NCBI GenBank assembly: GCA_965645245.1
Contig: OZ287077.1
Span: forward strand, 1-64,000
DNA: 64,000 nucleotides
Direction of reading: 5' to 3'
DNA from: Massalongia carnosa
Lineage: Eukaryota
How positions within the stretch are numbered: position 1 is the first letter of the stretch; every line of letters starts with the position of its first letter. Positions 7,286 through 64,000 of the stretch are shown in pieces. Under the pieces are notes generated by a model. That model saw only the letters and a list, made by a program, of their open reading frames with translations, was not told the origin of the DNA and did not search any database. The position numbers and the translations under genes are program-made.

Positions 7286-7356
7286 AACAGCTACAAGGCA
7301 ACCCACCTTCCTACAACCCAAAGGCGTTGAGAAATCTTCGCCCAAAAAACCACAAA

Positions 7357-11843: not shown

Positions 11844-12152
11844 AGCCAAATCAGCACAGCCACACTACCTGGAGCCACAACCTACCAATGAACCGATGCA
11901 ACCAACAGCTGCTGATTCTTCCAAAAAAAAACGAGATAAAAATCGATTCGTTAGCGTGGGCGATTCTTACGTAACTAGCGCATAGCTTGTGGGGGGGTGT
12001 TGGATACCAACCTATGGCGCTAGACATTATTATGGTCACGTGTATCAGTAGACCTATTCCGGTATGCGGCACGCATCCTGGACTAGGATGATTTTAGACC
12101 TTAGAAGTAGAGTCATAGAATCATTAATATAACATAACCTCATACTTCTACA

Positions 12153-13242
12153 GATGTTGACGTCGACAATAGAAGCATAGCTTCCAGTCATCACAGATCT
12201 TACGGACTCCTGGATCCGTCAACTTATGGCCTCGAACGGCGGCCATTGCTGAACTCAGATCCATGGGATCGCCGCCGGCAGCGGCGACAGGGGCAGCAGG
12301 TGTGGTGACGGCCGGGGTGATGCGTGTGGTCATGTTGGAGGTGCTGGTCGTGGCAAGTGCGTTTCCTCGTCTAGTGGTCGGAGGATTGCTGGCATTGGCA
12401 GCAGGGGTGGTGCGAGGATGGCGATGTTTTAACTGCCTCAGGTCCCAGTCGGTGTCGGACCACATCTGCACATGATCGTCAAACGTAACGGGCCTGGACC
12501 CATCTGTTTTTCGCCACGAGATTGCGGCTGCCTGTATGGCGTAGTTGACATTTGATCGCATGGCGTCGATTAGAGAGCCATCTTCCATTCCCGATCGTTC
12601 TTTCTTCTGTGTGAAGAGGTTATAGTATTCTTCGAAACTTAGCGTACCCTGTTTGAGGGTGTCACGAAGATAGGTGCGTGCGTCTTCTTCTTCAAAGCGA
12701 TTGCCACATACCTGGCGCAATTTCATTCGCCAATCTTTTAGACTTGTCAGCGCGCACAAGCCATCCTTTCTATACCTGTTCATCAAGTTGTGTGCTTTTT
12801 TTCCGATGGTAAGTCGGGATTCGGCATAAGTTATCTTTTCGTTCTCTGTAGGATAGCGGTCATGGTTCACATGCATCCTCTGTATCAGACTCTGTTCCCA
12901 TGAATCGAGATTGTCCATGTTGCCGTCGTATTCGGCAATGTCCGGCAGCTTTTCTGACTTGGCCGGTTTGTCTGTGGAGAGGTTCTTGCACTTAGCAGCT
13001 GTCACGGCGGCCACGATCGAAGTAAGGAACTCGGGACTGAGAGAGGAAGAAGGGGAAGACGTGGAAGGTGGTGTAACGATGGTGGAGGCTTGGGCTTCCT
13101 GTTCCAATTTTGCTATTTGGTTTTGCAATCTCTCCGTTTCTTGAAGGAATAGAAGGGGGTTGGCCTGCACGTAGGCAAGCTGTGCATCTGTGCTTTCAAT
13201 GGGCTGCTCGGGCATAGGTTGTCCTTGATCTTGGTTTGACAT
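12153..13242 (-). pseudogene. Gypsy gag, split in its zinc knuckle by the Copia-A1 insertion
   Basis: GDPMDLS and CFYCRRQH; removing copia plus one TSD restores CFYCRRQHPGTIGDC. Confidence 0.85.
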
Positions 13243-23970: not shown

Positions 23971-26776
23971 GCAGGAATGTTCGGCAAGGTCCAACAAGAT
24001 CTCCCCAGGCAGAAGATATTTCAAGGCCCGCGGAAGAGTCACCGACACCAAGCACTGAGGAAGCTATGGGCCCTGCTAAATACACAGAGGAAGATCTGCA
24101 GAGAATCACAAAGCTCTGCATTGAGTCCTTCCTCCAGGCACAAGGTAGTCGACATGAAGGCCCCCGAGAAGGTCAGTTAAAATCTCGGTTCCCGAATCTC
24201 TAATATTGAAAGTCCCATATAGAGTGTTACCATTTCTGCCAACAATGCGAAGACCACTTTGACACCGCCGGCGCCACCGGGTCAAACCGTCCACCCTTTG
24301 CCGCATCTTTCCTTCGTGGCCGGATTAGCTTTCGTTGGCACCAGCACAAACGTCGAAGCCAAGGCGAAGAGGTAGGACCTTTGTCTTGGACCGAGTTCAA
24401 GGCTTTCCTTCGGAAGAATCTTGGAGACTCCAGGGCTTTTGTGGACTCAACCTGGAGTAGGATCAAGCGGGACTCCCAGTATCAACATGAAGAAGTTCAG
24501 GATTGGGCTTCTCACCTGGAACATCTGCAATCTATACTCCTGGAGTTTGATGCTGATGCAGCTCCAGAGGAGTCGGACCTTATCCGGTTCTTTCGTGAAG
24601 GCCTCAAGCCTTCGATAAAGGCTCAGATGGAACAACGAGGAAGGGAACTAGACAGCTGGGAGTAGCTGGTCGAAAAAGTGATCGATGCTGAGGTAAAAGC
24701 TAGCCTGCAGCCGCAATCGATCCTTCGTGAGATGGATCAGCGTTGTCCACATGGAAACCGGCCCGCTCATGCTACTGTGGCCAAACCCCACACCTCTACT
24801 CGAGACCCTCGAGACGAGCCTAGCGAAAAGCCCAATCCGTCGGGTCCGAAGCAATCAAACTCCTCGCGCCTAGAGAACAGCGAGATTGCTGAAGAAAGCT
24901 CGGAGATAAAAGAAAATGCAGCGACGTAGTGATCATAGTCGAGATCGGAAAGGCTCCGAGTTCACTCCGGCCACCGGTGCCAACACTTCCAGCGGCACCA
25001 GCAAGGACTTATCCCAAATCGCCTGCTTCAACTGCAACAAGAAGGGACAATACTCAAGTACTTGTCGCGAGTCCAAGAATGACGCCTCAAAAAACTAGTA
25101 TCGGTCTTGGCAACCTCCGCGCCTCTGACTGAAACTAGTAAGGAGGCTAATCTTGAGCGGGTTCCTTGTATTAGATATCCGGTCCATTTGAGGAAGGATC
25201 AAGACAAGATACAGGCTTTGATAGATTCGGGCAGCGAGGTCAACGCAATGCACCCCGCTTATGCCGCGAAACTAGGCCTTCGTGTTAGGGAAACAGATGT
25301 TGGGGCGCAAAAGATTGATGGATCTCACCTGGATACCTTCGGTATGGTTATCGCAGGGTTCGCGGTCAAGGACAAGCTAGGGAAGGTTCGATTCTTCCAG
25401 GAAACCTTCTTGTTGGCTAATATTAGCCTGGAGGTGGTCCTGGGGATGCCTTTTCTTACACTCAGCAGTGTGGATGTACGGTTCGCAGAGCGATAGCTCG
25501 CCTGGAGAACCTACACAGCTGCCGAGGCTTTACCAACAACCAGACGTGTGGAGATCATCGATAAGGAAGAATTCGCGGCGGCGGTCCTTGGAGGAGACGA
25601 CGAGGCATATGTGGTGCATGTAATGGCCGTAAGCAAGCCATCGTCCATGCCGATCCACACCTCTCGTCAGGCCCAAGTAGCCTCGCTAGTGAGCGAGGAG
25701 GCCAAGATCCCCGTTGAATATTCCGACTTCTCTGACGTCTTCTCCCCTGACTCCGCAGTAGAGCTACCGGAGCAGACCGGCATTAACGACCATCCTATCG
25801 ACCTAGTAGATGGTAAGCAGCCACCTTATGGCCCAATCTACAGCCTAGGTCCTGTGGAACTAGAGACACTGAATACCTATATCGAAACCAACCTAGCCAG
25901 CGGTTTTATTAGGCCTTCCCAGTCTCCGGCTGGTGCTCCGATACTGTTCATCCGCAAGAAGGACGGTAGTCTGTCAAATTATAGGATAACTAATCCTAAA
26001 CATCAGTGGTAACTCAGGATGATATATCCGAAGGGTTATTCCGGCCCGACTAGACACGTGGCCTCCCCCCTTAGATAGATTCCCACTTTTCCACATCCTC
26101 CACAATAAAATCAACATCTACCCAATTCCCTGATTATGCCTTTTGACCCTTATATTTGACAGTTATGAGCCCGGATAGTCGTAAAGACACCGCAAATCGT
26201 CAAGAGCATTAGATTCTTAAATTCAACGAGACAGCAATCGTGAAAATGGCAGCAGAATCCAAAACGATGAGGACAATCCTCGAGACATCAGAAGATTGGG
26301 AGACGTGGTATGTGTTAGAATGTACAAATCAGGCTACTTCATTTCAGCCGCACTCACCTTCTACCGCACGAGTATACGCACGCTAATGGCTAGACGTATC
26401 GCTAGTCTAATACTAGGATACCGTACATTGTCTATAAATCTAGCTATTCCCACTATATAGAACAAAAGCAAGCGTTCTATCCTCTATCTACTATACTACC
26501 TTTTGATAGGTTATGAGCCCGGCCGCAGGGCGCCTCTTTACATGTGTTTGCTTGTCTTACTTTACCTACCCTAACACAAGCCTCCTTACCGTCGCAAACA
26601 ATTACCGTCGCGAATAATCTCCTACAAAAAAATCCGAAAAAAATCGACACATATGAAACAGTCGGCAGTGTTTGAGATGGCTAAGCACTACTATCAGGCG
26701 CCCGGCTTCTTCTTTGCCCCTTACTAAACGAACGCTAACAAATATTTTAACAGGCACCTCCTTGCACTTCGTTTCG

Positions 26777-27099
26777 ATGTCTCGGATGATCTACATTCCT
26801 AACAAAAAACCGGGAATGTGACTCCAGATGTCTCGGATGATCTACGTTCCCAATAAAAAACCGGGAATGTGACATCCACTTCACTTTGATGTCTCGGATG
26901 ATCTACATTCCCAACAAAAAATCGGGAATGTGACATCCAGGTGTCTCGGATGATCTACATTTCCAATAAAAAACCGGAAATGTGACATTCACTTCGATGT
27001 CTCGGATGATCTACATTTCCAATAAAAAACTGGGATTGTGACATCCAGATGTCTCGGATGATCTACGTTCCCAACAAAAAACCAGGAATGTGACATCCA
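26777..27099 (+). repeat. Six-copy ~51-61-bp tandem array in Copia-B leader
   Basis: GATGTCTCGGATGATCTAC(A/G)TT..AA.AAAAA.CGGGAATGTGACATCCA units. Confidence 0.93.
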
Positions 27100-27698
27100 T
27101 TGGGATGAAACCAAATCTCCCTACCATCGATTTTGCCCTCTATTCATAGTCAGCATCTGCGTATCAGTTATAAGACTGCAGGATTATGGCTTCGAGCAAC
27201 AAAAACGCTCTCGATTTATCAATCCCAAAGGCACAACTAAACGCCTCAAATCTATCTTTGCACCTGCATCTGCTTCTGCATTTAGATCTATTATATCAAT
27301 CACTGCCCCATTCCTACGTGGCACTCTTGCCGAGATCCAATGACTCTCAGAGCCTCAACCAAATAATAGGCCGGCAACAAGGCTTGAACGGGATTCACAA
27401 CATTACAGGCGGCTAGTGCGGAAATCGTTGCTTTTCTCTTAGAGGATAACTCAGATCAATCAAAATTGGATTGCTTTGTACCATCATCCCTGAGCCTCCA
27501 GTCACTCCCGGTCAGTCCACATCATAATCGGACCTAGAACCGCCTAGCGACTGTGATCCTTTCGATCTAAGAGCCAGAACCAAGTCACCAAGCACTTATA
27601 ATAGCACTCCGTCGGAATCCGGTACAATCAAACACCAGTTCAAGCCAGTCCGTTAACAAGGACAATCCATCAAGCTCTTCCAATAAACCCTTTCCATC

Positions 27699-48190: not shown

Positions 48191-49329
48191 CAACGCCAAC
48201 AGATTTGAGCAAGCTTATAGAGACATCGCTACCAAGGTCGAACTCCCCAGCCGCGATGACGCAAAGTTTGATATCCTCCAACTACGTATATGAATGGCTC
48301 GGCAATGAGAGAAACGGCCGATGGCTTATGGTAATCGACAATGCCGACGACGATGAGGTTTTCTTTGCCGCCGACGAAGATAGCGTCGGTATTGCGCAGA
48401 AGAGCGCCATCCCCAGCCGCACCAGGCCGCTTGAAAGCTTCATCCCCTAAACGCCGAACGGAACGATTCTCATCACCTCGAGGAACGGAATTGCGGCAAG
48501 TAATCTCGTTGAGCCGCATGGTAGCGTTGTCCAGGTGGACCCAATGGATGAAGAGGACGCTCTAGCGCTGCTCAACACACGGCTACCATTTAGCGAGTCT
48601 AGTAGAGCGGATGCGAAGGCGCTTGTCCGGGCTCTAGAACGCATACCTCTTGCAATTATCCACGCTGCGGCGTACATCAAGACAAGAGCATCCACGACAA
48701 CCATGTCCGATTACCTTGAGCTGTTCCGTGAGAGCGAGGCCAATCAGGTGCATCTCCTAGGCAAGAACGTTCTAAAGGACCTTCGGCGAGACTACAGCAT
48801 ACGGCGTGCGGTTATCGCAACGTGGCAGATCTCGTTCACTCAGATCCAGAAGATGGAGCAGCCAGCTGCAGATTTGCTTGCATTGATGAGCATGTTCGAT
48901 AGGCAGGGAATTCCGATAGCCCTGCTGCGGAACAGCACCAGTCGACTCGACTTTGACGACGCTCTGGCGCCGTTGCTAAGCTTCTCCCTTGTGCGGGCCG
49001 AGATCGGAAAGCAGTCGTTTGAGATGCACCGTCTAGTGCAGCTATCCATGAGAAAGTGGCTCGAGGCGGCCAAGCAGCTAAGCAAATGGACAAAGGAGTC
49101 GATAAGAGTTCTAGCCGCAGCATTCCCCAGCGGAGACTATAAGACGTGGGCGGATTGTCAAGTACTCCTTCCCCACGCAAGAGAAGCTATTGGCCATGGA
49201 ACAGAAGATGAGATGGACGTGACAAATCAGGCACAAGTTGCTTCAAACTTAGGATGGTACTTACTCCTTAGAGGTGAGTACAGAACGGCGGAGGAAGTTG
49301 TTCGAATGTCAGTCGAAGCAAGAGAGAGG

Positions 49330-49889
49330 GTACTTGGGCCAGAGCACCCACACACGCTCACCAGTGTCAGCAACCTTGGGTCGATGTTGGAGAGCCAGGG
49401 AAAGTACGAAGAGGCGGAAGCGATGCGCCGGCGAGCATTGGAAGGAAGGGAGAAGGTACTTGGGCCAGAACACCCACACACGCTCACCAGTGTCAGCCAG
49501 CTTGGGTCGGTGTTGGAGAGCCAGGGCAAGTACGAAGAGGCGGAAGCGATGCACCGGCGAGCATTGGAAGGATACGAGAAGGTACTTGGGCTAGAGCACC
49601 CACACACGCTCACTAGTGTCAGCAACCTTGGGTCGGTGTTGGAGAGCCAGGGCAAGTACGAAGAGGCGGAAGCGATGCACCGACGAGATTTGAAAGGATC
49701 TGGGAAGGTACTTGGGCCAGAGCACCCACACACGCTCACCAGTGTCAGCCACCTTGGGTCGGTGTTGGAGAGCCAGGGCAAGTACGAAGAGGTGGAAGCG
49801 ATGCACCGGCGAGCATTGGAAGGAAGGGAGAAGGTACTTGGGCCAGAGCACCCAGACACGCTCACCAGTGTCAGCCAGCTTGGGTCGGT
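49330..49889 (+). repeat. 126-bp (42-aa) high-identity TPR-coding repeats, ~4.4 units
   Basis: Units start at 49330, 49456, 49582, 49708, 49834. Confidence 0.95.
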
Positions 49890-52499
49890 TATATAGATAC
49901 GCTGCAGCAGCCACAATCTCTCTCCAAAGCTTGTGAGGTAAATTGGCTGATAGTCTCATCGCTCGAACCTTCTCCATGATAAGCCTTCCAAACCTTTCTG
50001 CCCCTCCATTTTGAGCATGAGTGTTTGGTGCACAAGGCTCAAACGTAACTCCAACATTGATGCACCATGCCTTAGTCTTTAAGCGATTCATCTCCTTGTC
50101 AGACCGGATGACTTTTACCTCAAGATTGTGCCGAAGTGCGAGCCACGTCACAAAGTCTTGAATCAAGGGTAAATTCTCTTCTTCTTTTGCCGACTTTGTG
50201 AAGTAGGTAATAGCCATTTTTGTCGCCTCACACACCACAGCCATGACTCGTCGAACGATAGCTCCATCTCCTTGATAGCCATCCCAACCTTCTTCTAGAT
50301 CAAACCAGTCAATAAAAACACGGTAGAACGGTCGCAAGGCCCGATTAGCTGGCGTTCTTCGTGATATCTGTTGAGTTATCTTTGCCATCGCGCAATGGGT
50401 GCACTGGGCCATCTCTTTACATCGAAGTTGACTTTTATTCTCCATTTTCGCAATTCACCTGGTGCTTCGTCTCGCCTTTTGAGTGGAATGGACCATATCT
50501 TTCTAGAATAGTTGTCCACAATTTCCAAAAAGTATGTGTATCCTTCTCGAGAGGCAGGCAAAGGACCGCAAATATCGATGGAGACCAGAGCCAGAAGAGA
50601 GGTTTTTCGCTCGGTCGCTTTGCCTCTTTTATTGGTGAGCTCAGTGAGCGCGCATACCTCGCAAATGTGATCCTCTTCTTTGCTGACCGGAATAGGCTTT
50701 TCTAGGGTGGTGACCTTATGCAGGTTACGAAGCTTTTATCGGCCTAGGTGAGCGAATCTTCGATGCCATAGCCTGTACGTTTCAGAGTGTTTGTGTCTTG
50801 GTTGGGTTAAGTGCGGGTGTTGACTCAATCTCGATTTCCATATTGTTATGTATTGTTAGACATGTTAAACCCGCGCCGCGCGGCTTTAACGCCTCTGATG
50901 AAGACGAGAGTGATGCAATATCAACTTTGCTTGGAAAGGCAATGTCATGATGCATGGACGCGGTTAATGCGAATTCATCGAGATCCTTTGCTATTTTCTC
51001 GACGATATGTACTCCCTCTCGCTGCCGTGACTCCATGATCTCCTTGCCTTGCTTGTCATGCATCTTCAGCCCGTGCTGATTGAAACTTCCGATGAGGCCC
51101 TTCTCGCACATCCGCCTTCCAGACAAGAGATTAACCCCTAGCTTGGGGACATAAAGGACAGAAGAAAGAAATCTCTGATTTCCGTGCCCATCCTTGATCA
51201 CGCACGTACCGCGATGACATGCTCTCAATTCTCCCCCGCCGACCTTTATTCTTCTTTCTCTGATCTTTGTCAGAGGTCCGCTAAAGAGCTGAAGCTTGTC
51301 AGTCATGTGGGATGATGCGCCAGAGTCAGCTACCCATTTTGATATGGGAATCGTACTGACAGCTTCTCTGGAGAGGGCCGCAGTTTCCTCGAGATCATCT
51401 AGATCATCGTCATTATCGCCTGATGAGAAGCTATCGTTCTCGTCCTCTTCTTCTAACTCGCCAGCGAGATAGCTCCTATGGCGCTTGACGGATGATTTGC
51501 CCTTATTGATCTCTTTCTTCTTCTTCGCGAGGCTCCTAACGTGGCTGCGAGTGCTTTCCAAGAATTCGCACTCTTTGGTCCTGTGGCCGACTTCTCCACA
51601 GATTAAGCATCCCTTTTGCGAGTTGACCTTGAATTTCGTTTCTCTCTTTGCACTTGAGGACCTTTCGTGCCGTCTGGATCGCTCCTGCCTGGAGTTGTTG
51701 AATGCTTCGACTTCTGGATGGGTTGAGAGGCCGTCGCTGCTCTCTTCGCTGTTCTTTCTGCTTTGCGAGCAAGGCTAAATCTGCTTTCGCCTGTGTTAGC
51801 TGCATTTCTATGTCTTCCAACCTTTTTATGCCAATTTCGGCATCTACTCCCCCAATTGCATCAATTCCGTCCCTAATGACCGCCTACTCGGCTGGGAGAG
51901 TTGTAAGAGTAATTGGAAAAGTTGCCGAGTGGGAAATGCGTCTCGAAGTGTGGGTGTGGCCATGACGACCTTGTCTCTCAACAACAAAAGTTCCCCCCAT
52001 GCCTCCTGAACGGTAGTGTTCTCTTTCATTTTATATGACACCAGCTCTTGAAGGTAATGCCTTCCTGAAGAGGGAAGGATGTTTTTGTACTTGCTTAACA
52101 GCGGGTCCACTTTTCCGCCGCTGTCTTCATCACTCTTACGCGTTCTTGATCGAATTGGCTTAAGCAGATGGTTATAAGATAGCATGCTTTAGCGTTGTCC
52201 TTTCTCTATCTTTCCGGATCGATGAATGGGGTTTCCGGGGTGAGGGGTGTGTCTGATTTCTCTATTCCTTTTCCATCAAGGCTTAATTTGTCCATGCGCT
52301 GCTGAAGGTACGAGGAATTGCGCTGTGGCTCGCTTATTGTATGAAAGATGCCTTCCGCTTCGAAATGCATTTCGGCTAGCTCGAACCATCTTTGATAGTT
52401 CTCCCTTGTCAGAACGGGCAAGGGACTTCTTTTCGCTAAATCGTCTGCGATTGTTGTCATTTTTGATATTTGCTTGTGCTTGTTGTATCCGTCATATCA

Positions 52500-52685
52500 A
52501 GCTGCCGAGAGTGCTGGTTTATCCTACCACAGGAATCGTAAGGAGCTGCCGAGGTGCTGGTTTATCCTACCATAGGAATCGTAAGGAGCTGCCGAGGTGC
52601 TAGTTTATCTTGTCATAGGAATCGTAAGGAGCTGCCGAGGTGCTGATTCTTCCTACCTAAAGGAATCGTAGTCGAGCTGCCGAGA
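52500..52685 (-). repeat. ~43-bp tandem array (4-5 copies) in Copia-E leader
   Basis: GCTGCCGAGGTGCTGGTTTATCCTACCA.AGGAATCGTAAGGA units. Confidence 0.88.
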
Positions 52686-52992
52686 TAGCGATTTGCGAAG
52701 AGCTATATCCTTTTCTGATGTTCGGAAGCTTGTTGCTGACCGTGATCATAACCAGTTCAAAGGAGACTCTGGTTTCAGGTGATCGCATTGACTATAAAGC
52801 TATCTAAAAGCTAGTTCATGTGACCTCGTATTGCTTCTATTTCTAAGGTTGGCGGAAACACAGCGATCTGCACCTCGCTGGCGCCGTCACTCTCGCCGGC
52901 GCCTCTACCTAGCGCCCCCTTTCGGGCCTTGGTGCAGATCGCGGTGGATACTCCCAAGCCCAAGATGGAAACGGCTCGCGCGGCGATGCTGT

Positions 52993-54024
52993 TTAGGAGG
53001 CTGAGGGAGGGTGTTGAAAACGGCGTGAGGTGGCTAAGATGTGGGATTGATGCGTTTGGATATAAAGCTTGTAGGAGTCTGACTTCCACCGGCCTAGTAA
53101 TTGAATGTCGTTCTCGCTAAGACCGACTTCCTTGGCCGACGTCGCTGCACCTCTTCGGAAAGAGTGACCTGAATAATTACCTGTTATGCCTAAGCTCTTA
53201 AGCCCTGATCGCATCGCGGTGGTCAAATATTCGCGTGTGGAAGCCTTTTGTTTATAGAATAAAGGGGAGGTTGCAGGTAGTGGAAACCGGGTGATCAAAT
53301 TACGAAGGGATTTTACCGCGCAGGCCTCGTCCCCTGATGCGGCTATCGTTAGCGTAATGCCTCGACGAAAGGGGTCGGTTTTGGACGCCGGCAAGGAGAG
53401 GAACAGCTTATCTGCTTCTAAGTGGACGGATTTCCTAGTTAAATGCCATGATTCGAAGCTTGGGTCTGTTAGGTCTCTGATAGTGTACGTAAATTCGCCT
53501 GCGCGAAGAAATCCTGCGAATGCCAGTCAGTATGCTGCGTGTAGAGTGGCCTGCGCGTTGTCGGTTAAGTCCAATCGTTTCACTAAACGAAGGAGTATGT
53601 TTTTCGTAATGGGCATTCGCTCTTTCTTGTCGGCTTCGCCATTCTTTCGCTTTATGCCGGCAATGATTCTATTTAGTACGGGATGGTGAAACGTTTCTAG
53701 ATCCTCAAAGCCCGTGTCGATTTGGCTGGACCGAACTCCGGCTAGATAGGCCTTGATGGTTTTGGGCTGTATTTTGTGTTCTCCTAGCATCGCTATCCAA
53801 GATGACAAAGTCTGTATGGTTGCCGGAAATGGAGTCGCGTTCATTGATATTCTGCAGTGTGTTACATAGCTTCTTCTCCCTGTGTCATACAGACTGCGGG
53901 TTTTGACTGCCAAGCCCCACCACAGGTATCTAGCTGCTGGTCGGGATAGAGGTATTTCGCTATACCAGCTTTCGGGAGGGTCGCGTGCTAGGATTTGAGT
54001 AGAAGTTCCTGTAAATTGGGCCAT
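52993..54024 (-). pseudogene. Tyrosine recombinase (one in-frame stop at 53527-53529)
   Basis: TIKAYLAGVRS, AFAGFLRAGEF, SKTDPFRRG, YSGHSFRRGAAT, LGRWKSDSYKLY. Confidence 0.93.
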
Positions 54025-55546
54025 TTGTTAGCGATTTTCTCCAATTTGCCCCGTGATAGGAGGTCAGCGAGCTCATTAGACTTTGTTGGGATCTAACGTA
54101 TTTCAATCCGAATATCATGAATAGCGGTCAGCATTGCGATTGCCCGAAGGGGCCGCATAGCGTTTCCACGAATAGATGATTTCCTTATTCCTGACGTGAC
54201 AGCAAAGTTGTCACAGTGGAAAATCACATGGCTCCCTGCACAAAGGGGGAGCCATTTACGCAAAGCGTGTAATATCGCTGTCATTTCTTTGACATTGATG
54301 TGAGTTGGCCTAAGCCGAGACGTGAAACGTTCAGAAAGTGCATGCTCAGCAGGCATGGTAAAACTGGTATGATCCTCCACTAGGATGTAGGCCCCAATGC
54401 CGTACCCTGATGCGTCCGTCCAAAGACGAAATGTCTCGCGAGGATGGTCTAACATGCGAATGCCATTCCATTTAGGTAAAAAAAGATGCCACCACTGCAG
54501 GTCGGCTTTGATATTCTCGTTAATATGAATATGACGCCCACGAGACATGGCTTTTGCGTTAAAAAGACGTCGGAGGAAAGCTCTCCCTGGCACTACCACT
54601 TTAGCTGCGAATGACAAAAATCCCACCAAGGAGTCTAATTCCTCCCTTCTGATCGATGATTTTTGCAAGGCCTGTTTGACGAGGTCTTTGGCTTTCTGCA
54701 GTTTGTCTGGTGGTAGCCGTGCTTCCATGAGCATAGTATCCAATTCAATGCCTAAGAAATCGATCACATGACCAGTTTTATTTTTCTTTTCGTTGACTGC
54801 GATTCCAAGGTCTTTGCAAAGATCGAAGAAGTACCGAGTGAAAGCTTCCGCTTCGGGATTAGTGCGGCAAACTGCCAAGAAATCATCTAGATAATGAAGC
54901 ACATCATGTTGATTTTGTAAACACATCCAATTTATCCCCTTTGCAAACAAATCGAATAGAAAAGGAGACGTGCGCAAGCCGAAAGGTAGAAAGCGCTCCA
55001 TCCAGTAAACATTATCCCATTGAAATCCCAGCAACCACCAGTCGCTTTTAGCCACGGGTATATGGCGAAAGGCATCGGAGAAATCCCTTTTTACTAATAT
55101 GCACCCTTTTCCTTGTTGTCTTATTTTGGCGACAGCGTCATCGAATGTGGGGTATTCCAAGGCCCCCCATTCCTGAGGGATGAAGTCATTTACCGACGAT
55201 CCTTCAGGATGAGATAAATGATGGACACGGCGCCATGTACCATTTGATTTGGGTACGAGACCTAATGGGGATGATATGAACTTGGAGGGAAGAATATCTA
55301 CTCGCGTCAATCGTCCCTTATCCCTCTGCTCCTCGACATCTTTAGTGAGTATATCAGGAGCTTCTTTTGCTGATAGTAGATTGGGGCTGAGGATGAATTG
55401 TTCTGGGCCGGTATACCCAATCTTGGCCCCATACCGAATAATATCAAAATAGCCTGTTTGTACACGTTATCGGGGTGAGTTTCTAGGTGCTTCTTCCAGC
55501 CGGCGAGGATGAGTGGTCCTTGCTGAAGAGCCTCGAGTTTGTCCAT
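53987..55546 (-). pseudogene. DIRS-type reverse transcriptase / RNase H (frameshifts near 5' end, stop at 54093)
   Basis: SPLGLVPK..WRRVHHLSHP, KRDFSDAFRHIP, LPFGLRTSPFLF, HYLDDFL, FLGIELDT, LWTDASGYG, HINVKE, FHCDN, NELADLLSR. Confidence 0.93.
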
Positions 55547-55594
55547 CAGTCTGTACGGAAAACCTTCCGCGATATGGTCATATGGGCCGGCTAG

Positions 55595-56671
55595 TCAATC
55601 CTTCCTATTGACCGGTGTCCAATTCGGATTGTTACGAGATTGGCTACTTGGGTTGCTATTGTTGGGGGTGTTGCCCCTGCAACTAAGTGCTGGGTGCTGT
55701 CTCCCGCAGTTGCTGCAGACGTGTTGGTATCTGCAGTCTCGGCAGTCCTTGCCTGTGTTATACCGATGGCAAGGGTAGGGCCTTGGAGTATTGCTGTTTG
55801 AATTGGTTGTGTATCCCCCAAATCCGGTCCGGGTTTGAAGGTTGTTGAGGGGCCTGTCGCGTTTAACCAGGTATGTGTTTTCCAAGTCTGGGTAGCTTTG
55901 CCTCCATTTTACGGGGTCGTCCACTCCTTGATACCACAGCGTTCTATGAAATAGCATATGAACTTGCAGCAACGACTCCCATGTGTAGGTATTGTGAAGC
56001 AAAATCAGCCGGTCCTCGTATTTCATGAAGGCCCTTGCTAGATCTTTGAACAGACTTGCTTGTGCAAAGTGCAATACCGCTTGCCAGTATACCAAAAGAC
56101 AACGAATTAGGTGGGTGATACCCTTGATGTCGCTCAACGATGCGTCATCCTCGCCAGTAATGACCTCCAGACCTTTGCTGATATTGATAGATTTCTTCGT
56201 AGACTTGCTCAGAGTAACGTCACTGCACATCTTGGCGATATTGATGGGGTCAAACTTATTTTCCAAAATTTGCTTGAAATACAGCTGGTTTATGGCCGGA
56301 AAGTCACTTGTCAGAGGGAGGATTCTTGGGTCATCCGTACCTTCGCTCTGAAAGGCCTGATTGGTCTGTTGGGATCCCCCATGCTGAAATCCCGTAGGGG
56401 CCTCCTCCACCTCCAACGCGGCCTGTCTGTCGACAATTTCCTTCCTAAGCTTTCTCATTTCGGCCTGGCGCCCCTCTCGTACCAAAATGTCGCGTTGTAC
56501 GCGAAGTTCAAGTAGCTCATCAGGGGTACCGGGGCGTGTGGGCCCTTCTTCCGCTGGCTGGCCGGCCTGCATTGTTGCGGAGGTCGGCTGAGAGTCAGGC
56601 ACAAGGGGGGTGAGGGGGCCAGTGGGGCCGCTATCGTCGGCGGTGGACGCAGTGCGGCGGGTAGTAGGCAT
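55595..56671 (-). CDS. Gag-like ORF1 of the YR retrotransposon with C-terminal Cys/His zinc fingers
   Basis: ATG 56671 downstream of TATATA (~56852); CHRYNTGKDCRDCRYQHVCSNCGRQHPALSC. Confidence 0.8.
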   Translation of the reverse strand: MPTTRRTASTADDSGPTGPLTPLVPDSQPTSATMQAGQPAEEGPTRPGTPDELLELRVQRDILVREGRQAEMRKLRKEIVDRQAALEVEEAPTGFQHGGSQQTNQAFQSEGTDDPRILPLTSDFPAINQLYFKQILENKFDPINIAKMCSDVTLSKSTKKSINISKGLEVITGEDDASLSDIKGITHLIRCLLVYWQAVLHFAQASLFKDLARAFMKYEDRLILLHNTYTWESLLQVHMLFHRTLWYQGVDDPVKWRQSYPDLENTYLVKRDRPLNNLQTRTGFGGYTTNSNSNTPRPYPCHRYNTGKDCRDCRYQHVCSNCGRQHPALSCRGNTPNNSNPSSQSRNNPNWTPVNRKD

Positions 56672-57395
56672 TCTGTTTATGGAAGGGAGTAGAGCGGAGC
56701 TAGGTTTATACGTGTTTATCGAAGATGAAGAAGGGAAGAAGGATGGATTGTTCGTTAGGTTGGAAGATTGTTGGATCGGACTCAAAAACTACTATGCAGT
56801 GCTACCTCCGAATCCGAGATGATGAGGAGATGTAGGACTGCTTTGGCCCTCTATATAGCCTCCATCTCCCCCCTGTCATCCATCCATCCCTATCCGATCC
56901 CCCGTCGTTATCCGAACCAGCTCCTGGCGGATAACCGTGCAAAACCGAAGAGGTCCGGATTTTGCATCACCTGTTGTCCCCGTCATGCGTGGAGAACCGC
57001 TGGTAGCCGATCCGCTGGTGGCCGAATCCGCTGGTAGCCGAATAGCATCGGTCCCGCACTAGCTCTCGCCATAGATGAACTAGGAAAAGAGCAGACTTTT
57101 CACCAAAGGGCAAAGCACGCTAAACCTAAAACCTTCCTAGAGAAGATTAGACTACCCGCTATCCACGTTATGAGTCAGTGAGCCCAACAAGCCGTTATAA
57201 CCATAACCGCAACCGCCATTCAACATTTCTAATAATTAAAATCATATTTAACACGAAATATAAAACCAGAAATTCGTTTTAATAAACTCTATACGTCATC
57301 TGACCGTCGAGAACTAGACTTTGACTTCGTTGAGATTTAATCTTTTTACATCATTAATTGATTTCATTTTACAGTTAATTGTAGACTGAAGAGTC

Positions 57396-59168
57396 ATGAG
57401 AAGTTTTAGATATCAGTCTCTGCATGCAGATGAGATTCGTTTGCTTAGAATATTGTCAGGGGAAGGGGATGGTATAATGGCTGAGTTGGAGCATGTCACT
57501 TTGGCCAAGTCTCCAGCCTATATTGCATTATCGTACACTTGGGGCTGCGCTCCTTATCGCAAAGGCCGTTCGCCTTTAGCGACATATAGTGTCACGCTGA
57601 ATGGTCATGCTTTCTCTGTTCAGGAAAACCTTCATGATGCCTTATCGCATCTTGGCTGGCGCGCGAAGGAGGAGAACTGTCTGCTCTGGGTAGATGCAAT
57701 CTGCATAAATCAGGCAGACGTTGAAGAGCGCAATGCACAGATCTTGCATATGAGATATCTGTACGAGCATGCATTCATAATCTATGGTTGGATTGGTGTG
57801 CCGTATAACGAAGAGGAGACTCGTTTGGCTGTGCATCTGATGAGAAAATTCAATATGGTTCTTCGTGATGGGCTTGCGGCATATAACGATGACATGCATG
57901 CTGTCTCGATAAGTATTTCGGACGATAATCCGGAGATATTTCCTACGCCTGGAACAGACTGCTATAGGGGCTGGCTTGGTATCAATGATATGTTCAGTCA
58001 ACCTTACTGGCGGAGGGTCTGGATATATCAAGAAGCCACCGGGCCGTCGCCTACAAAATTTTACTGTGGCAATGACTGGTTCAACATGACACATCTTTGC
58101 GCCGCCGTTTTCTTTGCTCATCATTTTGCGGAATGGACGGATTTGGATGCCCGGTTTCGGAATATCGCTAGAGGCGCAGCGTTCGCCCTCCAAGCGTTCA
58201 GAAGCAATGGGGTCTTCACTTATGGCACTTCGCTTTTGAGCTTGCTAGAGTCCACTCGGAACACGGAAAGCACCGACCCTCGTGACAAGGTCTACGCCCC
58301 TCGTGGCCTGGCAACCGATTTACTGCCAACGAGCATCTTGCCTGATTATAGAAAGTCAGTGGAAGAGGTGTATGGCGATGTAGTGCGCTTCTCGCTTTCG
58401 CAGCCAGACCATGGGCTCCAAGTCCTCGGCCACGTTATCCGACCCGCAGCGGACTCTAAATATCTCAAGAGCGTCCACAATGGCCCTTTGATTCGCAGCT
58501 GGATACCCGACTTACGCGACCATCTAGGGATCAGCCCATTCTGCACGAATGTACAGAGCTCAAACACAGCCTATAATGCTTGCGGACCCCACAGGACTCA
58601 CAACGCGAGAATTGAAGGCTCTCAATTGATTTTAGACGGTAGCAGAATCGACCAAATTAAAACACTCACAGCATCATGGGAGGAAAACGTGTTCAGCACC
58701 GGCCATGTCCGCTCCTGGGCTTTGAATCCACCTCACGCTTTCCGCATTCCCACCGGCCAGACCCTAGACAGCGCATTTCGTACCACCGTCCTTGCCGATA
58801 TGAATCCCTTGACCCAGACTCGGGGCCATATAGTCGACTGGGAACTCCTCGAGACAAGTAACGACACCCTCAGCCCCAGCCAAAGCGCGCGGAAGAATGA
58901 GATGAACGTCGCCTTGAAAAGCGCGGCCGGTTGTCGAAGGTTTTGCTGGACCACGGGTGGGCGGATGGGAATATTTCCAGCTGCTACCAGGGTAGGAGAT
59001 CTTGTCTGTGTTCTTTTTGGCGGGCAAGTACTTTATGTCTTGAGAGGTGCTGATCACAATCATTTTGAGTTTGTGGGAGAGTGCTATATACATGGATTGA
59101 TGGACGGAGAGGCTTTTAAGCAAGGGGATACTCATGTTGCAGAAAAAGAAACGTTTAATTTGAATTGA
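57396..59168 (+). CDS. Heterokaryon-incompatibility HET-domain protein (het-6-like architecture), intact, 590 aa
   Basis: IRLLRI, YIALSYTWG, LWVDAICINQ..ERNAQI..M, YWRRVWIYQE, TDPRDKVYA, GDLVCVLFGG..LYVLR, FVGECYIHGLMDGE. Confidence 0.93.
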   Translation: MRSFRYQSLHADEIRLLRILSGEGDGIMAELEHVTLAKSPAYIALSYTWGCAPYRKGRSPLATYSVTLNGHAFSVQENLHDALSHLGWRAKEENCLLWVDAICINQADVEERNAQILHMRYLYEHAFIIYGWIGVPYNEEETRLAVHLMRKFNMVLRDGLAAYNDDMHAVSISISDDNPEIFPTPGTDCYRGWLGINDMFSQPYWRRVWIYQEATGPSPTKFYCGNDWFNMTHLCAAVFFAHHFAEWTDLDARFRNIARGAAFALQAFRSNGVFTYGTSLLSLLESTRNTESTDPRDKVYAPRGLATDLLPTSILPDYRKSVEEVYGDVVRFSLSQPDHGLQVLGHVIRPAADSKYLKSVHNGPLIRSWIPDLRDHLGISPFCTNVQSSNTAYNACGPHRTHNARIEGSQLILDGSRIDQIKTLTASWEENVFSTGHVRSWALNPPHAFRIPTGQTLDSAFRTTVLADMNPLTQTRGHIVDWELLETSNDTLSPSQSARKNEMNVALKSAAGCRRFCWTTGGRMGIFPAATRVGDLVCVLFGGQVLYVLRGADHNHFEFVGECYIHGLMDGEAFKQGDTHVAEKETFNLN

Positions 59169-61230: not shown

Positions 61231-64000
61231 TGTAGAAGTATGAGGTTATTCATTGTTGTTATATTAATGATTCTATGACTCTACTTCTAAGGTCTGAAAT
61301 CCTCCTAGTCCAGGATGCGTGCCGCATACCGGAATAGGTCTACTGTTACACGTGACCATAATAATGTCTAGCGCCATAGGTTGGTATCCAACACCCCCCC
61401 ACAAGCTATGCGCTAGTTACGTAAGAATCGCCCACGCTAACGAATCGATTTTTATCTCGTTTTTTCTGGAAGAATCAGCAGCTGTTGGTTGCATCGGTTC
61501 ATTGGTAGGTTGTGGCTCCAGGTAGTGTGGCTGTGCTGATTTGGCTCTAGGTCATCTGCATCTGTTCGACAAAGGTGTGGAACTTTGCGTGCGTTAGGGC
61601 CTTCGTCAGGCCGTCGGCGATCATCTCCCCAGTTGGCACGTAGGTCAACTCGATTCTCTTTGCCTCCACCTCGTCTCGGATGTAATGGTGCTGGATATCG
61701 ATGTGTTTGGTCCTGGCATGGAATACTGGGTTGTGTGTCAGAGCAAGAGATCCTTGGTTGTCACCTTTGAGTGAAACAGTGGGGTCTCCGTCGCTGGGCT
61801 TGAGGCTGTTGAGGTCTCTGTCGATCGCTTGTACGCACGAGTTCTTGTTGGAGACCTTGATCTCAGCATGCTGTTGGTCCGCTTCCAACACCCCAAGCTC
61901 TGTGAGGAGTAGACGAAGCCAGGTGGCTTCTTTGGCGGCCAGCGTGAGTGCGATGTATTCCGCTTCTGTGGAAGAGAGAGCAACTGTTAATTGCCTTTTA
62001 GAGCACCAGCTTATCGGTCCCCCGTTCAGCATAAAGATGAAACCGGATGTTGACTTCCGGCTGTCCTTGTCACCTGCCCAATCCGAGTCCGAATAGCCTT
62101 CGATTTTCAGTTCTTCATCCCCCCCATAGGTTATGCCTCGATGTTTCGAGCCCTTGAGGTATTTGAGGATGGTTTTGACTGCTTCGGTGTGCTGATGGCT
62201 CGGGTTCTTGGCAAAGCGACTTACGAGGGACGTGGCGAAGGCAATATCTGGTCTGGTCTCTACCATGGAGAACATTATGGACCCCGTCATTCCTTGGTAT
62301 CTCTCCTTCTCTGGTGGTGAGGCTTCTCCTTCCTCGCGTTGGGAGAGTGGCACAGATTCTTTCATCGGGGTGTTGACGGGGTTGGCTTTGTCGAGATGGA
62401 ATCTCTCCAACACTTTTTCGATGTAGGCCGGTTGAGACAGTTTGATGGTTCGTTGCTTTCGATCCCGATCTATTCTCAGTCCTAGGTAAAAGCTGATGGG
62501 ACCCATATCTGACATAGAGAATGCAGCTGTGAGTTCTGCTTTGACTCGCTTGATTATCCCACTGTCCTTTGGCGCCATAATCTTGATGTCATCTACGAAG
62601 ACGCTGAGTACGGGACCTTTCAGCCCTGCACCCGATACGAATATACTGTGGTCTGCGTGGATGCGTTTCAAGCCTACTTTCTCGAGGAGGAAGGCTGAAA
62701 AGCGTTCGTACCAGAGGCGAGGAGATTGTTTGAGGCCGTAGATAGCTTTCAACAGTTTGCAAACCATATTCTTTGTGGCTTCTGTCTCAGTTCCCTTTGG
62801 AATCTCCATATATATCAGTTGATCAATGAGGCCATAGAGAAAAGCCGTTTTTACGTCCATCTGATCGATGTCCAGGTCGAAGAAGGCGGCAAGGGCGAAC
62901 AGGGTTCTGAAGGCCATTGGCTTCACCACGGATGCGTAGGTTTGATCGAAATCAACACCAAACTGTTGTAGGTACCCTTTGATAACCCATCTGGCTTTGA
63001 ATCTAGATACCTTGCCTTCGACATCACGCTTGACCTTGTACACCCACTTCCCCCCCAGAGGTCGATGACCTGACTCCATCTCGTTCTTTGGTATGAGAAC
63101 CCAGGTCTTGTTTTCGTGTAGAGAGTCTATTTCTTCTTTCATTGCCTGTGCCCACTGCGAGGCGTGGGGGCATTGCATTGCCCTGTTGTATGACTCAGGT
63201 TCTTCGACATCTAATTGGGTGGCAAGGACGTAGTCTCCTTTACTTTGGGCGTTGGCCTGAATGAGCCTCGAAGTCAAGATTGTGTATGGGTCGTCGTCTG
63301 CGTCATGGCCGTCCTCCTCGCATTCGATGTTTGTCAGGAACGCGTTTGCTTTTTCCTCCGAGCTGTGTTCCCAGTCAAGGTCTAGCAGCTTGCTGAGATG
63401 TACTATCAGATCTTGATCTTGAGCCTTTTGTGTAGGCCTTATCGTTCGGCCAGACCGAGACTTCCTTGTCTCCGTAGTTTCATTTGACGCTCCAGTAGTT
63501 TCATCTCTAGTAGTGACCTTTCGGCCCTTCCTAGGGGTTACTGTACTGGGAGTTGACTCGCTGGCACCTGTTGCATTGTTGGACTTTCGGCCTACATCCA
63601 ACATCTGTGTGTCGCTCGTCGCCTCGTCATCGTCATCGGAGAGTAAGAAACCTGAGAAGGTGGGAGTGTTTTTGTATTCAGGAAGCTCGGTGGACGTCTT
63701 GGCCTCGTAGTCTTCAAAGATTCTGAGATCTTTGATGCGAATGACTTTGTTCTGTTCTCGGATGTGGACTCTGTAGATTGTATGACCATCGTATCCAACA
63801 AGAATACCGCGTAAGGCTCGTGGGTTCCACTTCTCAGACTTTAAGGCTCGTTCCTCTTCGTGTAGGAGAACGTACACTGTCGAGCCTAACACTCGGAGGT
63901 GTTGGATATCTGGGTGGATTTTCTGCTGTGCATGGTAGGGGTTGTCTCCACCTAAAGCCTTCGTGGGACGAACATTTTTGACGTACGTCATCGCAAGAAC
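61231..64000 (-). mobile_element. Second Copia-A copy (Copia-A2), 3' LTR 61231-61393, continues beyond the window
   Basis: Near-identical reverse complement of ~9391-12152. Confidence 0.96.
61547..64000 (-). CDS. Copia-A2 pol (integrase C-terminus, RT, RNase H), open throughout the visible part
   Basis: 814-aa open frame lacking the frameshift and stop of Copia-A1. Confidence 0.93.
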   Translation of the reverse strand, partial: VLAMTYVKNVRPTKALGGDNPYHAQQKIHPDIQHLRVLGSTVYVLLHEEERALKSEKWNPRALRGILVGYDGHTIYRVHIREQNKVIRIKDLRIFEDYEAKTSTELPEYKNTPTFSGFLLSDDDDEATSDTQMLDVGRKSNNATGASESTPSTVTPRKGRKVTTRDETTGASNETTETRKSRSGRTIRPTQKAQDQDLIVHLSKLLDLDWEHSSEEKANAFLTNIECEEDGHDADDDPYTILTSRLIQANAQSKGDYVLATQLDVEEPESYNRAMQCPHASQWAQAMKEEIDSLHENKTWVLIPKNEMESGHRPLGGKWVYKVKRDVEGKVSRFKARWVIKGYLQQFGVDFDQTYASVVKPMAFRTLFALAAFFDLDIDQMDVKTAFLYGLIDQLIYMEIPKGTETEATKNMVCKLLKAIYGLKQSPRLWYERFSAFLLEKVGLKRIHADHSIFVSGAGLKGPVLSVFVDDIKIMAPKDSGIIKRVKAELTAAFSMSDMGPISFYLGLRIDRDRKQRTIKLSQPAYIEKVLERFHLDKANPVNTPMKESVPLSQREEGEASPPEKERYQGMTGSIMFSMVETRPDIAFATSLVSRFAKNPSHQHTEAVKTILKYLKGSKHRGITYGGDEELKIEGYSDSDWAGDKDSRKSTSGFIFMLNGGPISWCSKRQLTVALSSTEAEYIALTLAAKEATWLRLLLTELGVLEADQQHAEIKVSNKNSCVQAIDRDLNSLKPSDGDPTVSLKGDNQGSLALTHNPVFHARTKHIDIQHHYIRDEVEAKRIELTYVPTGEMIADGLTKALTHAKFHTFVEQMQMT

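Follow-up and report, generated by a model that had tools for sequence, protein, structure and literature searches.

The element at 57083..52811 on the minus strand of the window (the whole 64-kb stretch of DNA that was analysed) is a retrotransposon of 4273 bp with a tyrosine recombinase (YR), resident in an ascomycete fungus that is met in lichen sequencing runs. It is probably a defective copy of the Ngaro type (order DIRS), a class read from its architecture and its relatives. Tyrosine-recombinase retrotransposons are rare, and how they replicate is poorly understood. The copy is laid out as a 5′ segment A, an internal region with gag, pol and YR, and a 3′ segment B, and its end structure, new at first sight, is most likely the familiar arrangement of split repeats minus the 3′ repeat module. 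Other copies were sampled through the Logan contigs of four public runs (X2, X3, X5 and X6, of 10 listed) and through protein clusters.

Table 1. Features of the element and of the sequence that it interrupts (positions in the window)
Feature	Position	Strand	Basis or remark
gag-like ORF, 358 aa	56671..55595	-	Cys/His-rich C-terminal stretch
pol (RT + RNase H)	55546..54093	-	RVT_1 E=7e-17, RT_RNaseH E=2e-10
Tyrosine recombinase (YR), Cre-like	54024..52993	-	Phage_integrase E=0.0027 by itself
Segment A, 302 nt, 5′ non-coding	56782..57083	-	common to the short A-m-B unit; joint 52955->56782
TATATAG in A	56857..56851	-	227 nt in from the 5′ end and 75 nt short of the end of A
Segment B, 145 nt, 3′ non-coding	52811..52955	-	common to the A-m-B unit
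5′ terminal 9 nt	57075..57083	-	CTAGTTCAT on the element strand; inverted match to the 3′ terminal 9 nt
3′ terminal 9 nt	52811..52819	-	ATGAACTAG on the element strand
Left flank, inner part of the interrupted multi-copy sequence	52741..52810	-	contig depth and joints
Right flank, outer part of the interrupted multi-copy sequence	57084..57384	-	depth drops to single-copy near 57384

The three frames follow one another on one strand in the order gag, RT/RNase H, YR. As the original prediction had it, this is a YR retrotransposon without a methyltransferase: among 13 frames of at least 80 aa on both strands, the Pfam scan gave RT, RNase H and integrase only, and the gap between pol and YR is too small to hold a methyltransferase. 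The gag frame has no Pfam match, and its C-terminal stretch, judged by eye, may be a zinc finger. A profile of 25 YR sequences matches the Cre/Tre recombinases (E=2e-11 to 1e-9) in two stretches, one N-terminal and one catalytic. The catalytic set is present (R175, K216, H288, R291, W314 and Y322); across the 25 sequences K216, H288, R291 and Y322 are invariant, and R175 and W314 occur in at least 90%.

The window copy is dead, with one frameshift and two premature stops. The frameshift lies in pol, where the A-run at 55446-55449 is short by one base; an extra A behind 55445 is found in X3 and in part of X2 and is absent in X5. Further on in pol, a premature TAG stands at 54095..54093, where intact relatives of 519 aa have a Trp and run 35 residues longer, and the run contigs have T>C at 54094. 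In YR, there is an in-frame TGA at 53529..53527 (codon 167), which is a Cys codon in all covering contigs of X5, X2 and X3 (53527 T>A).

The ends of the element were fixed with the help of contigs from copies that lack it. In these contigs, 52808 is followed by 57082, so that 4273 nt are passed over with an ambiguity of 2 nt (three contigs in X5 and one each in X2 and X3). This places the ends within 2 nt at CTAGTTCAT / ATGAACTAG; one X6 contig begins at 52811. The short inverted motifs that had been proposed as boundaries, which read CTAGTTCAT at 52811-52819 and ATGAACTAG at 57075-57083 on the forward strand, are thus the true ends. Together, the B end and the A start make a dyad; an inverted match of 9 nt fixed to the end of B arose in 3/2000 shuffles. 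The inverted termini plausibly form the recombinase site.

The interrupted sequence is multi-copy. Next to its left flank come a PBS-like TGGTTATGATCA, 43-nt tandem repeats and then a copia-type pol (Pol_BBD at 50782-51774), and the sequence is probably a copia 5′ LTR whose limits we infer. The original prediction had named it a “Copia-E” 5′ LTR; what the contigs and the window show is that the flanks are multi-copy and run on into the copia-type pol, and “Copia-E” is that prediction’s own label only. Directly after B, the window returns to LTR sequence. The empty copies of this LTR decide what the target looked like. Removal of the element was expected to leave TAAAAG-CTAG-GAAAAG, the trace of integration at a CTAG core, but the joined contigs read TAAAAG|GAAAAG. 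Three more X2 contigs pass a loose end at 52810 into GAAAAGAGCAGACTTT and read the same, and CTAG is also missing from the insertion point in three variant joints among the run contigs. The prediction had itself named an empty LTR without CTAG as the outcome that speaks against a CTAG core. Since the empty sites lack it, both CTAGs are the element’s own, and the joined ends make a palindrome of 18 nt (9+9 nt, abutting) where 14 bp had been described. This palindrome is the likely site of the recombinase. There is no target-site duplication, and the empty site and the element ends have at most 2 nt (AG) in common.

The window copy is without long repeats, as had been noticed at the outset, and neither ITR/ICR nor split direct repeats are part of it. 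Its two ends share no repeat above 27 nt in either orientation; among the inverted pairs of the region, the longest measures 18 nt and is internal, and the termini pair over 9 nt only. Split direct repeats were found neither within 52000-58000 nor elsewhere in the 64-kb window, and nothing from 52601-57300 recurs at another place in the window.

A short unit also occurs in these runs, in which the element’s first 302 nt (A) and last 145 nt (B) flank a spacer of 38 nt (m). It is seen as a joint 52955->56782 with 38 letters between, in X2, X3 and X6, and its depth is close to that of the internal contig (772.8 vs 723.8 in X2, 68 vs 44.3 in X3 and 4.1 vs ~3.3 in X6); in X5 the only trace is an 11-letter loose end. 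These A-m-B units probably represent an Ngaro 3′ repeat module. The spacer showed nothing above chance against the element (blastn, word size 7), and it was accordingly rejected as a leftover of the internal region. Segment A contains three 16-nt tandem repeats (56995-57041), and its TATATAG may be the TATA box of a promoter. With the TATA box so far inside the 5′ end, a transcript of the window copy would not include the copy’s own 5′ end. Segment B opens with GGG, has a 16-bp stem (52859-52874 / 52931-52946), and contains, within its last 40 nt, A-rich words that resemble poly(A) signals and may act in that role.

The element belongs to a family with many copies. The summed depth of its contigs is ~6-27x that of the single-copy flank, a measure of depth and not of copy number; 1319/2101 X5 contigs are at least 99% alike, and 23 protein-cluster members are spread over contigs of at least 9 different Mb-scale lengths. 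A canonical A1-ORFs-B1-A2-m-B2 copy was not seen in the contigs of the four runs. Also, the B|A junction (57083 back to 52811) is found in 0/14 of the joints listed from these contigs, which can miss such a junction.

The canonical design does occur in relatives. We collected 85 related fungal loci and counted repeats in the relatives (RT identity 35-55%) whose flanks extend for 2.5 kb or more upstream and 3.5 kb or more downstream, 30 distinct loci in all. Split direct repeats of the form A1-ORFs-B1-A2-m-B2 are present in 7/30, six of them as A1/A2 repeats with split-repeat geometry and one (L034) as B1/B2 with an A-like start; three loci on short contigs (L027, L077, L081) have the design as well. 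With these repeats in relatives and A-m-B units in the same runs, the terminal architecture that was thought possibly undescribed is probably not a separate design. In three loci marked as repeat-bearing in the RT tree (L051, L064, L068), the A-type repeat extends to the ends of the contig, which may be an assembly effect, and these loci were therefore left out of the counts. Spanning repeats at L008, L016, L033 and L050 were rejected as split repeats, being either 64-82% alike and part of neighbouring elements, or 4-6 kb off the ORFs. Bare A-ORFs-B copies, with unrelated flank directly after B, make up 14 loci in six related families, of which F1, F2 and F6 have both bare and canonical copies. 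For example, L016 and L017, which sit at different sites and are both bare, agree at 99.3% over 5026 nt; direct integration of the bare form accounts for this more easily than a later loss of the module from each copy.

The A2-B2 spacer measures 39-89 nt in 8/8 loci dissected. Among these loci and the window’s unit, CCC[AG]CCC lies within the first 16 nt of the spacer in 7/9, and B starts with GGG in 7/9. The 3′ module of L004 abuts B1 directly and is composed of A(439)+m(89)+B(181), and a TATA box stands ~55 nt before the end of its A. At 7/10 junctions, the last 6-9 nt of B recur in inverted form among the first 30 nt of A, the arms in relatives being spaced 8-24 nt apart. At the nucleotide level, A, B and the 5′ leader had no match in the 85 loci at E<=0.05, and exact CTAGTTCAT/ATGAACTAG was not found in the 7 loci searched for it (L001, L003, L005, L009, L045, L047, L059). 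In an RT tree of the related loci (FastTree, midpoint root; no named Ngaro references among them), the window element clusters with P0002-P0004, L001 and L005, and the split-repeat loci fall in the sister clade and beyond the midpoint, that is, on both sides of its clade. The tree has several long branches and omits 21/85 loci (>3 stops or <430 aa) and 2 duplicates, and given also its method and rooting it is used for bracketing only. In the nearest clade, L005 has no split repeats and L001 is without its 3′ end.

A mechanism may be proposed from what was observed: where the element ends and what it encodes, the missing target duplication, the A-m-B unit, the relatives’ split repeats and the junction dyad. 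Its predicted parts are the sites of promoter and poly(A) signal, the circle, and the route to the bare form. The family’s full design would be A1-[gag, pol, YR]-B1-A2-m-B2, in which A would supply the promoter together with a few tens of nt at the start of the transcript, and B the signals for its 3′ end. Only the internal B1|A2 junction could then serve as a template for copying the untranscribed 5′ stretch of A back into cDNA. The cDNA would close to a circle, and the Cre-like recombinase would join the B|A junction, which in the window family would be the 18-nt palindrome of ATGAACTAG adjoining CTAGTTCAT, with a non-homologous target and leave no duplication. Cre is able to resolve two lox sites. 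In the same manner, the recombinase could divide a circle with two B|A junctions into two smaller ones, A-internal-B and A-m-B. A full copy that has already integrated could instead lose either part through B1xB2 or A1xA2 recombination. Both routes would yield the forms seen, namely the copy in the window and the A-m-B units at other places in the genome. Some observations run against loss of the module from an Ngaro: no B|A joint appears in the four runs, the bare form is common, and no locus of the nearest clade shows split repeats.

Other explanations have to be weighed against this one. It is unlikely that the bare A-internal-B form with abutting 9-nt inverted ends is the family’s normal, self-sufficient retrotransposing form in this lineage and regenerates its ends without split repeats, either from read-through RNA of upstream promoters or from a circle transcribed past its own start. 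Pararetroviruses transcribe a closed circle in this way. The missing B|A joint, the raised depth with most contigs at least 99% alike, the scatter of cluster members over Mb-scale contigs, and the near-identical bare L016 and L017 of another family would all fit such a form, as would the position of the window copy inside a copia LTR in the same orientation, where an upstream promoter could read in. However, the A-m-B unit has the spacer motif of the canonical relatives’ A2-B2 gap, the TATA box lies inside the element, the CTAG-core part of the idea is refuted by the empty sites, and three of the families with bare copies also have canonical ones.

Movement as DNA is quite improbable as an account of the copies. 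Here, the recombinase would excise A-internal-B and A-m-B as circles from half-sites and reinsert them, so that the copies did not all arise via reverse transcription. Excision and reinsertion as circles has been proposed for Cryptons. The two unit types do have the same ends and similar depth in X2, X3 and X6, the empty paralogous sites are clean and without target duplication, and all X5 contigs at 55445 carry the frameshifted A-run, which means that copies with a broken pol have multiplied. Yet mobilisation in trans through RNA serves broken copies equally, the empty sites seen are other LTR copies, at the element’s own locus neither an excision footprint nor a polymorphic empty site was seen, and the circle junction is absent among the joints of the four runs. 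A combined reading is speculative and has a low probability as well: a two-junction circle, resolved by the recombinase, would have split the Ngaro design into two separately moving parts (A-ORFs-B and A-m-B, with the same 9-nt inverted ends), which the recombinase could also move, or rejoin in tandem, as DNA in this ascomycete lineage. The canonical element would then be a transient tandem, and RNA-based spread would alternate with Crypton-like, DNA-based spread. Least of all do we expect that the inverted ends arose by chance or that CTAG is a 4-nt target duplication, for which the empty site would read TAAAAGCTAGGAAAAG. Two CTAGs look like a direct and an inverted repeat alike because CTAG is its own complement, but no empty LTR copy has CTAG at the site, and as a duplication or a shared core it was rejected for this reason; moreover, the match, rarely reached in shuffles, extends 5 nt past CTAG, and the relatives’ B end pairs with a word near the start of A.

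The Ngaro-type reading can be set against known systems. Published descriptions give the structure of the Ngaro superfamily (order DIRS) as A1-[ORFs]-B1A2B2 (PMC8547959, PMC4157794, PMC3783388, PMC13465315). The window element shares with it the order of gag, RT/RNase H and YR on one strand, the lack of a methyltransferase and of a target duplication, and, in its relatives, the split direct repeats; its isolated A-m-B units resemble the “solo AB repeats” that one of these sources reports for Ngaro elements of Cafeteria (PMC8547959). It differs in lacking the A2-B2 module, as do the organism’s other copies as far as the four runs show, in ends that abut as a perfect 9+9 nt palindrome, and in its ascomycete host, since the fungal surveys consulted place Ngaro mainly in Basidiomycota with one truncated copy in ascomycetes (PMC3783388). 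An “LTR/Ngaro” repeat class does appear in genome figure legends of a 2023 lichen-genus preprint (10.1101/2023.01.10.523206). DIRS1-like elements are also YR retrotransposons that insert without target duplication, and an internal copy of the circle junction is their proposed means of restoring ends, but the window element has no ITRs of hundreds of nt, internal complementary region or methyltransferase. PAT-like elements share split direct repeats with the wider family and have a methyltransferase-like domain (PMC4157794), which the window element lacks.

Cryptons, the YR-only DNA transposons of fungi and animals, are alike in their Cre-like recombinase, in ends without long repeats, and in a proposed circle that recombines with the target. 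They have no RT, RNase H or gag, whereas the window element has RVT_1 and RT_RNaseH, and their flanking direct repeats of 4-6 nt, described as reflecting target microhomology (PMC13465315), contrast with an empty site that has at most AG in common with the ends. Sites of the Cre/loxP type likewise have two inverted arms around a short centre, and the recombinase profile matches Cre; unlike them, the arms here are 9 nt and abut (in relatives they are 8-24 nt apart), and the target partner bears no likeness to the element’s site.

The window element is probably a further Ngaro-type element, and a new class of element is not required. In the fungal surveys consulted, Ngaro is treated as close to absent from ascomycetes, and this locus supplies base-exact ends, a clean empty site and the lack of a target duplication for a multi-copy, little-diverged ascomycete family. 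Together with the 85 related loci, it brings out three features that matter for mechanism: bare A-ORFs-B copies outnumber canonical ones, a conserved C-rich word stands in the 3′ module right after A2, and the B end pairs with the A start as an inverted repeat. With these three features, the circle-junction model becomes testable.

The ends of the element, a minus-strand, probably Ngaro-type tyrosine-recombinase retrotransposon copy (57083..52811, 4273 bp), are real and are fixed by contig joints. Logan contigs from four public sequencing runs (X2, X3, X5 and X6) were placed on 51500-58500 at 85% likeness, and five of them (three from X5, one each from X2 and X3) pass from 52808 straight to 57082, skipping 4273 nt, with a joint that slides by 2 nt (AG). 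Three more X2 contigs continue from 52810 into GAAAAGAGCAGACTTT, the sequence at 57084, and one X6 contig begins one letter ahead of 52811. The predicted ends, 52811 and 57083, are thereby confirmed. Uninterrupted copies of the flanking sequence read TAAAAG-GAAAAG, and three variant joints likewise lack CTAG at the insertion point, so both CTAGs are part of the element and there is no target duplication. The original prediction was largely right in its overall observation (three ORFs, the ends, no repeats in the copy), but its CTAG core in the target, for which it had itself named the empty site as the test, has to be abandoned.

A repeat search of 52000-58000 found nothing to link the two ends, and neither blastn with 52601-57300 nor a self-comparison of the whole window turned up any of that region a second time, in agreement with the long repeats having been described as missing from this copy. 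The two ends do share an inverted match of 9 nt, which is real; 3 of 2000 shuffles reached it in a lenient search. Contig depth, when summed, stays high between 51500 and about 57384 and is flat and low thereafter (X5 about 2500, X2 27, X3 about 7; depth is not copy number), and both flanks are multi-copy. Because the left flank also leads into a copia-type pol (Pol_BBD), the element lies inside repeated sequence, most likely a copia 5' LTR whose other copies are uninterrupted.

The gag ORF has no Pfam matches. As predicted, there is no methyltransferase; the Pfam search found neither that nor any further domain in all 13 frames of at least 80 aa on both strands. The tyrosine recombinase (YR) gives a weak match on its own, and a profile of 25 aligned sequences, the window's YR plus 24 recombinase frames from related loci, matched the Cre and Tre recombinases (E=2e-11 to 1e-9) over the catalytic as well as the N-terminal part. 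Individually, 21 of the 25 match Phage_integrase. The catalytic K216, H288, R291 and Y322 are invariant across the alignment, and R175 and W314 are kept in at least 90% of it. The window copy is nevertheless dead, with three lesions judged against P0131 and P0132, two intact pol proteins of 519 aa from its own 90% cluster, and against the mapped run contigs: an A-run at 55446-55449 that is one base short and shifts the pol frame, a TAG at 54094 where other copies have Trp, and, in YR, a TGA at 53527 where they have Cys. The short A-run is common to all X5 contigs there and is intact in X3 and part of X2, which means that a pol-defective lineage has multiplied in one organism.

Coordinates of the element's features, of related spacers and of neighbouring sequences
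Feature	Position	Strand	Details
gag	56671..55595	minus	358 aa
pol	55546..54093	minus	RVT_1 E=7e-17; RT_RNaseH E=2e-10
YR	54024..52993	minus	Phage_integrase weak, E=0.0027, single sequence
Stem inside B	52859-52874 / 52931-52946		16 bp, 94% complementary, 56-nt loop
Spacer m, window's unit	between 56782 and 52955		38 letters; C-rich start
Spacer m, related loci	L004:13242-13330; L027:5439-5486; L060:6311-6360; L074:13042-13090; L077:4376-4448; L081:4742-4809		C-rich start
Other repeated DNA in the L079 copy	6535-9431		about 2.9 kb, between A1/gag part and rest
HET-domain ORF	57390-59168		592 aa; just right of element
TPR_10/TPR_12 NLR-type ORF	48451-49896		internal repeats in 126-nt register
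Tandem repeats	52497-52690 (43-nt units); 6981-7299; 26765-27107		just inside internal-region 5' end of three different copia elements
Complete copia	6589-12153		155-nt LTRs 6589-6743 / 11999-12153, 99% alike
Second copy of that copia	61231-64000	opposite to first	98% alike; runs past window end

The same runs hold a second joint, from 52955 to 56782, with 38 other letters in between. Read in element orientation, the unit consists of 302 nt from the 5' end (A) and 145 nt from the 3' end (B), with a spacer of 38 nt (m) between them; the spacer has no match in the element interior. The depth of this A-m-B joint compared with the long internal contig is 772.8 versus 723.8 in X2, 68 versus 44.3 in X3 and 4.1 versus about 3.3 in X6; X5 has just an 11-letter loose end, matching the end of the spacer.

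The relatives show where such a unit belongs. An RT search gave 2254 proteins, the best beyond the window's own cluster being 66% identical. An 11-sequence RT alignment then led to 80 metagenome loci and five contigs binned in bacterial MAGs (85 loci, 35-55% identical in RT to the window's family), and all-against-all blastn put many of them in multi-copy families, so their ends were fixed. A flank of at least 2.5 kb upstream together with at least 3.5 kb downstream was available for 32 loci, 30 of them distinct (L005=L006, L037=L042). On self-comparison, six of these 30 (L004, L038, L060, L073, L074 and L079) have A1...A2 repeats in the canonical split-repeat geometry, A1-ORFs-B1-A2-m-B2; L034 has a B1/B2 repeat with an A-like start behind B1, four have other spanning repeats not counted as split repeats, and the remainder have no spanning repeats. 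Beyond the 30, L027, L077 and L081 show the canonical design on short contigs. In all eight loci dissected, A2 directly adjoins B1 and a spacer of 39-89 nt separates A2 from B2; the 3' module of L004, for example, is A(439)+m(89)+B(181). A C-rich word, CCC[AG]CCC(ACCC), stands within 16 nt of the start of m in seven of nine cases (the eight loci and the window's unit), and B starts with GGG in seven of the same nine. The families sharing the C-rich word are unalignable in their other non-coding DNA; priming, pausing or protein binding are candidate roles for it. A stem lies inside the window's B, and the B of L004 likewise opens with a GC-rich self-complementary stretch. The L079 copy is split by other repeated DNA and keeps its A2-m-B2 module.

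The contigs from bacterial MAGs (L081-L085; 2.7-6.6 kb, fungal-type retrotransposon RT, binned in Acidobacteria, Kribbellaceae, Thiodiazotropha and Bacteroidetes) most probably entered those bins as eukaryotic contamination. A second Ngaro-like family (P0003, P0135-P0148; 24 cluster members) has an RT 63% identical to the window's and lies on Mb-scale contigs, several of which (1893471, 3767895, 1633556 and 3628741 nt) equal in length contigs with the window's family, so one genome probably carries both.

In the RT tree (FastTree, 67 rows, midpoint root, several long branches; 21 loci with stops or too short and two duplicates left out) the window's RT falls in one group with P0002-P0004, L001 and L005. 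The sister clade includes L004 and L079, both with split repeats, and further repeat-bearing loci fall in other clades and beyond the midpoint. Judged by RT sequence, elements of apparent Ngaro build, none a named reference, bracket the window's family. Neither of the two nearest loci has split repeats to show, which counts against a lost 3' module: L005 is without any, and L001 is cut ahead of its 3' end.

The window copy is the bare form, A-ORFs-B, and it has company. Unrelated flank follows directly after B, without A2, in 14 loci (L002, L011, L015, L016, L017, L020, L021, L030, L032, L037, L044, L057, L072 and L080) spread over the same six families, three of which (F1, F2 and F6) contain canonical copies too. 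Two bare loci at different sites, L016 and L017, match at 99.3% across 5026 nt. Such near-identical copies may mean that the bare form is a direct product, or even mobile, and they count against a lost 3' module, as does the lack of any B-A junction of the window's family among the 14 joints listed from contigs of the four runs. The prediction of an undescribed terminal architecture, corrected to a bare A-internal-B form with inverted ends that is sufficient in itself, gains from these two observations, and it is still unlikely. In its build and in how its spacer starts, the A-m-B unit agrees with the 3' modules of the canonical relatives, and it is best taken to be the Ngaro 3' module; it is also the remnant expected of a canonical element after A1xA2 recombination, and 'solo AB repeats' of Ngaros are on record in Cafeteria (PMC8547959). 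With split repeats in the relatives as well, the most likely reading of the architecture is the known Ngaro design minus its 3' module. Movement of the units as DNA by the recombinase is more doubtful still.

The 'att-like' ends of the original prediction find a counterpart at the B-A junction. Seven of ten junctions (nine real ones and one made by setting the two ends of the window's element next to each other) show an inverted match between the final 6-9 nt of B and a word within A's first 30 nt. The offset of that word in A is 21 in L004 (8 nt; 10 of 2000 shuffles) and L079 (6 nt), 24 in L027, L038 and L060, 8 in L074 and 0 in the window. This makes the dyad a family trait, with the window's 18-nt palindrome as its tightest form, and it fits a recombinase site of two inverted arms.

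Transcription signals suggest how the repeats might be used. In the window's A, a TATA box stands 227 nt in from the 5' end and 75 nt ahead of A's own end (about 55 nt in L004), and A-rich words resembling poly(A) signals stand in B, 20-45 nt ahead of its end, in the window and its relatives; together these probably mark the transcript limits. The transcript would begin within the final few tens of nt of A and stop near the end of B, with the first 250 nt or so missing, and a complete A would be carried solely by read-through RNA across the B1-A2 boundary. This is the same logic as in the published model for split-repeat elements, in which the repeats anneal (as summarised in PMC6681497). A closed cDNA circle would then contain the B-A junction, which the recombinase would join to an unlike target; such joining is compatible with the missing duplication and with sharing of AG at most. 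The bare form could arise if the recombinase resolved a circle with two B-A junctions into two circles, each inserted separately, or by B1xB2 recombination after integration, A1xA2 recombination giving the A-m-B form. The former route would account for the two forms having similar depths in X2, X3 and X6, and for no canonical copies turning up in the four runs; the data can accommodate either.

Mobile elements abound in the window, among them several copia, a chromo-integrase and a Tc5/pogo-type transposase. HET-domain and TPR_10/TPR_12 ORFs flank the transposon cluster, tandem repeats lie within three copia elements, and one complete copia has a second copy on the opposite strand (table). HET domains are typical of filamentous ascomycetes. 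Runs containing the element stretch include one labelled 'lichen metagenome'.

Three papers give the Ngaro structure and its absence of methyltransferase (PMC4157794, PMC8547959, PMC13465315). A fungal survey described Ngaro as Dikarya-specific, with one truncated ascomycete copy 'without terminal repeats' (PMC3783388), fungal Ngaro is still assigned chiefly to Basidiomycota in a 2026 paper (PMC13465315), an 'LTR/Ngaro' repeat class is listed in two figure legends of a lichen-genus preprint (10.1101/2023.01.10.523206), and the Repbase consensus sequences of VIPER and TATE are without 3' repeats (PMC6681497). Neither the spacer motif nor the pairing of bare with A-m-B forms came up in the literature covered; either may be described in the primary papers on Ngaro or in reviews of it. 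The element is best taken as a new Ngaro-type member in an under-sampled host group, with a few mechanistic leads for specialists.
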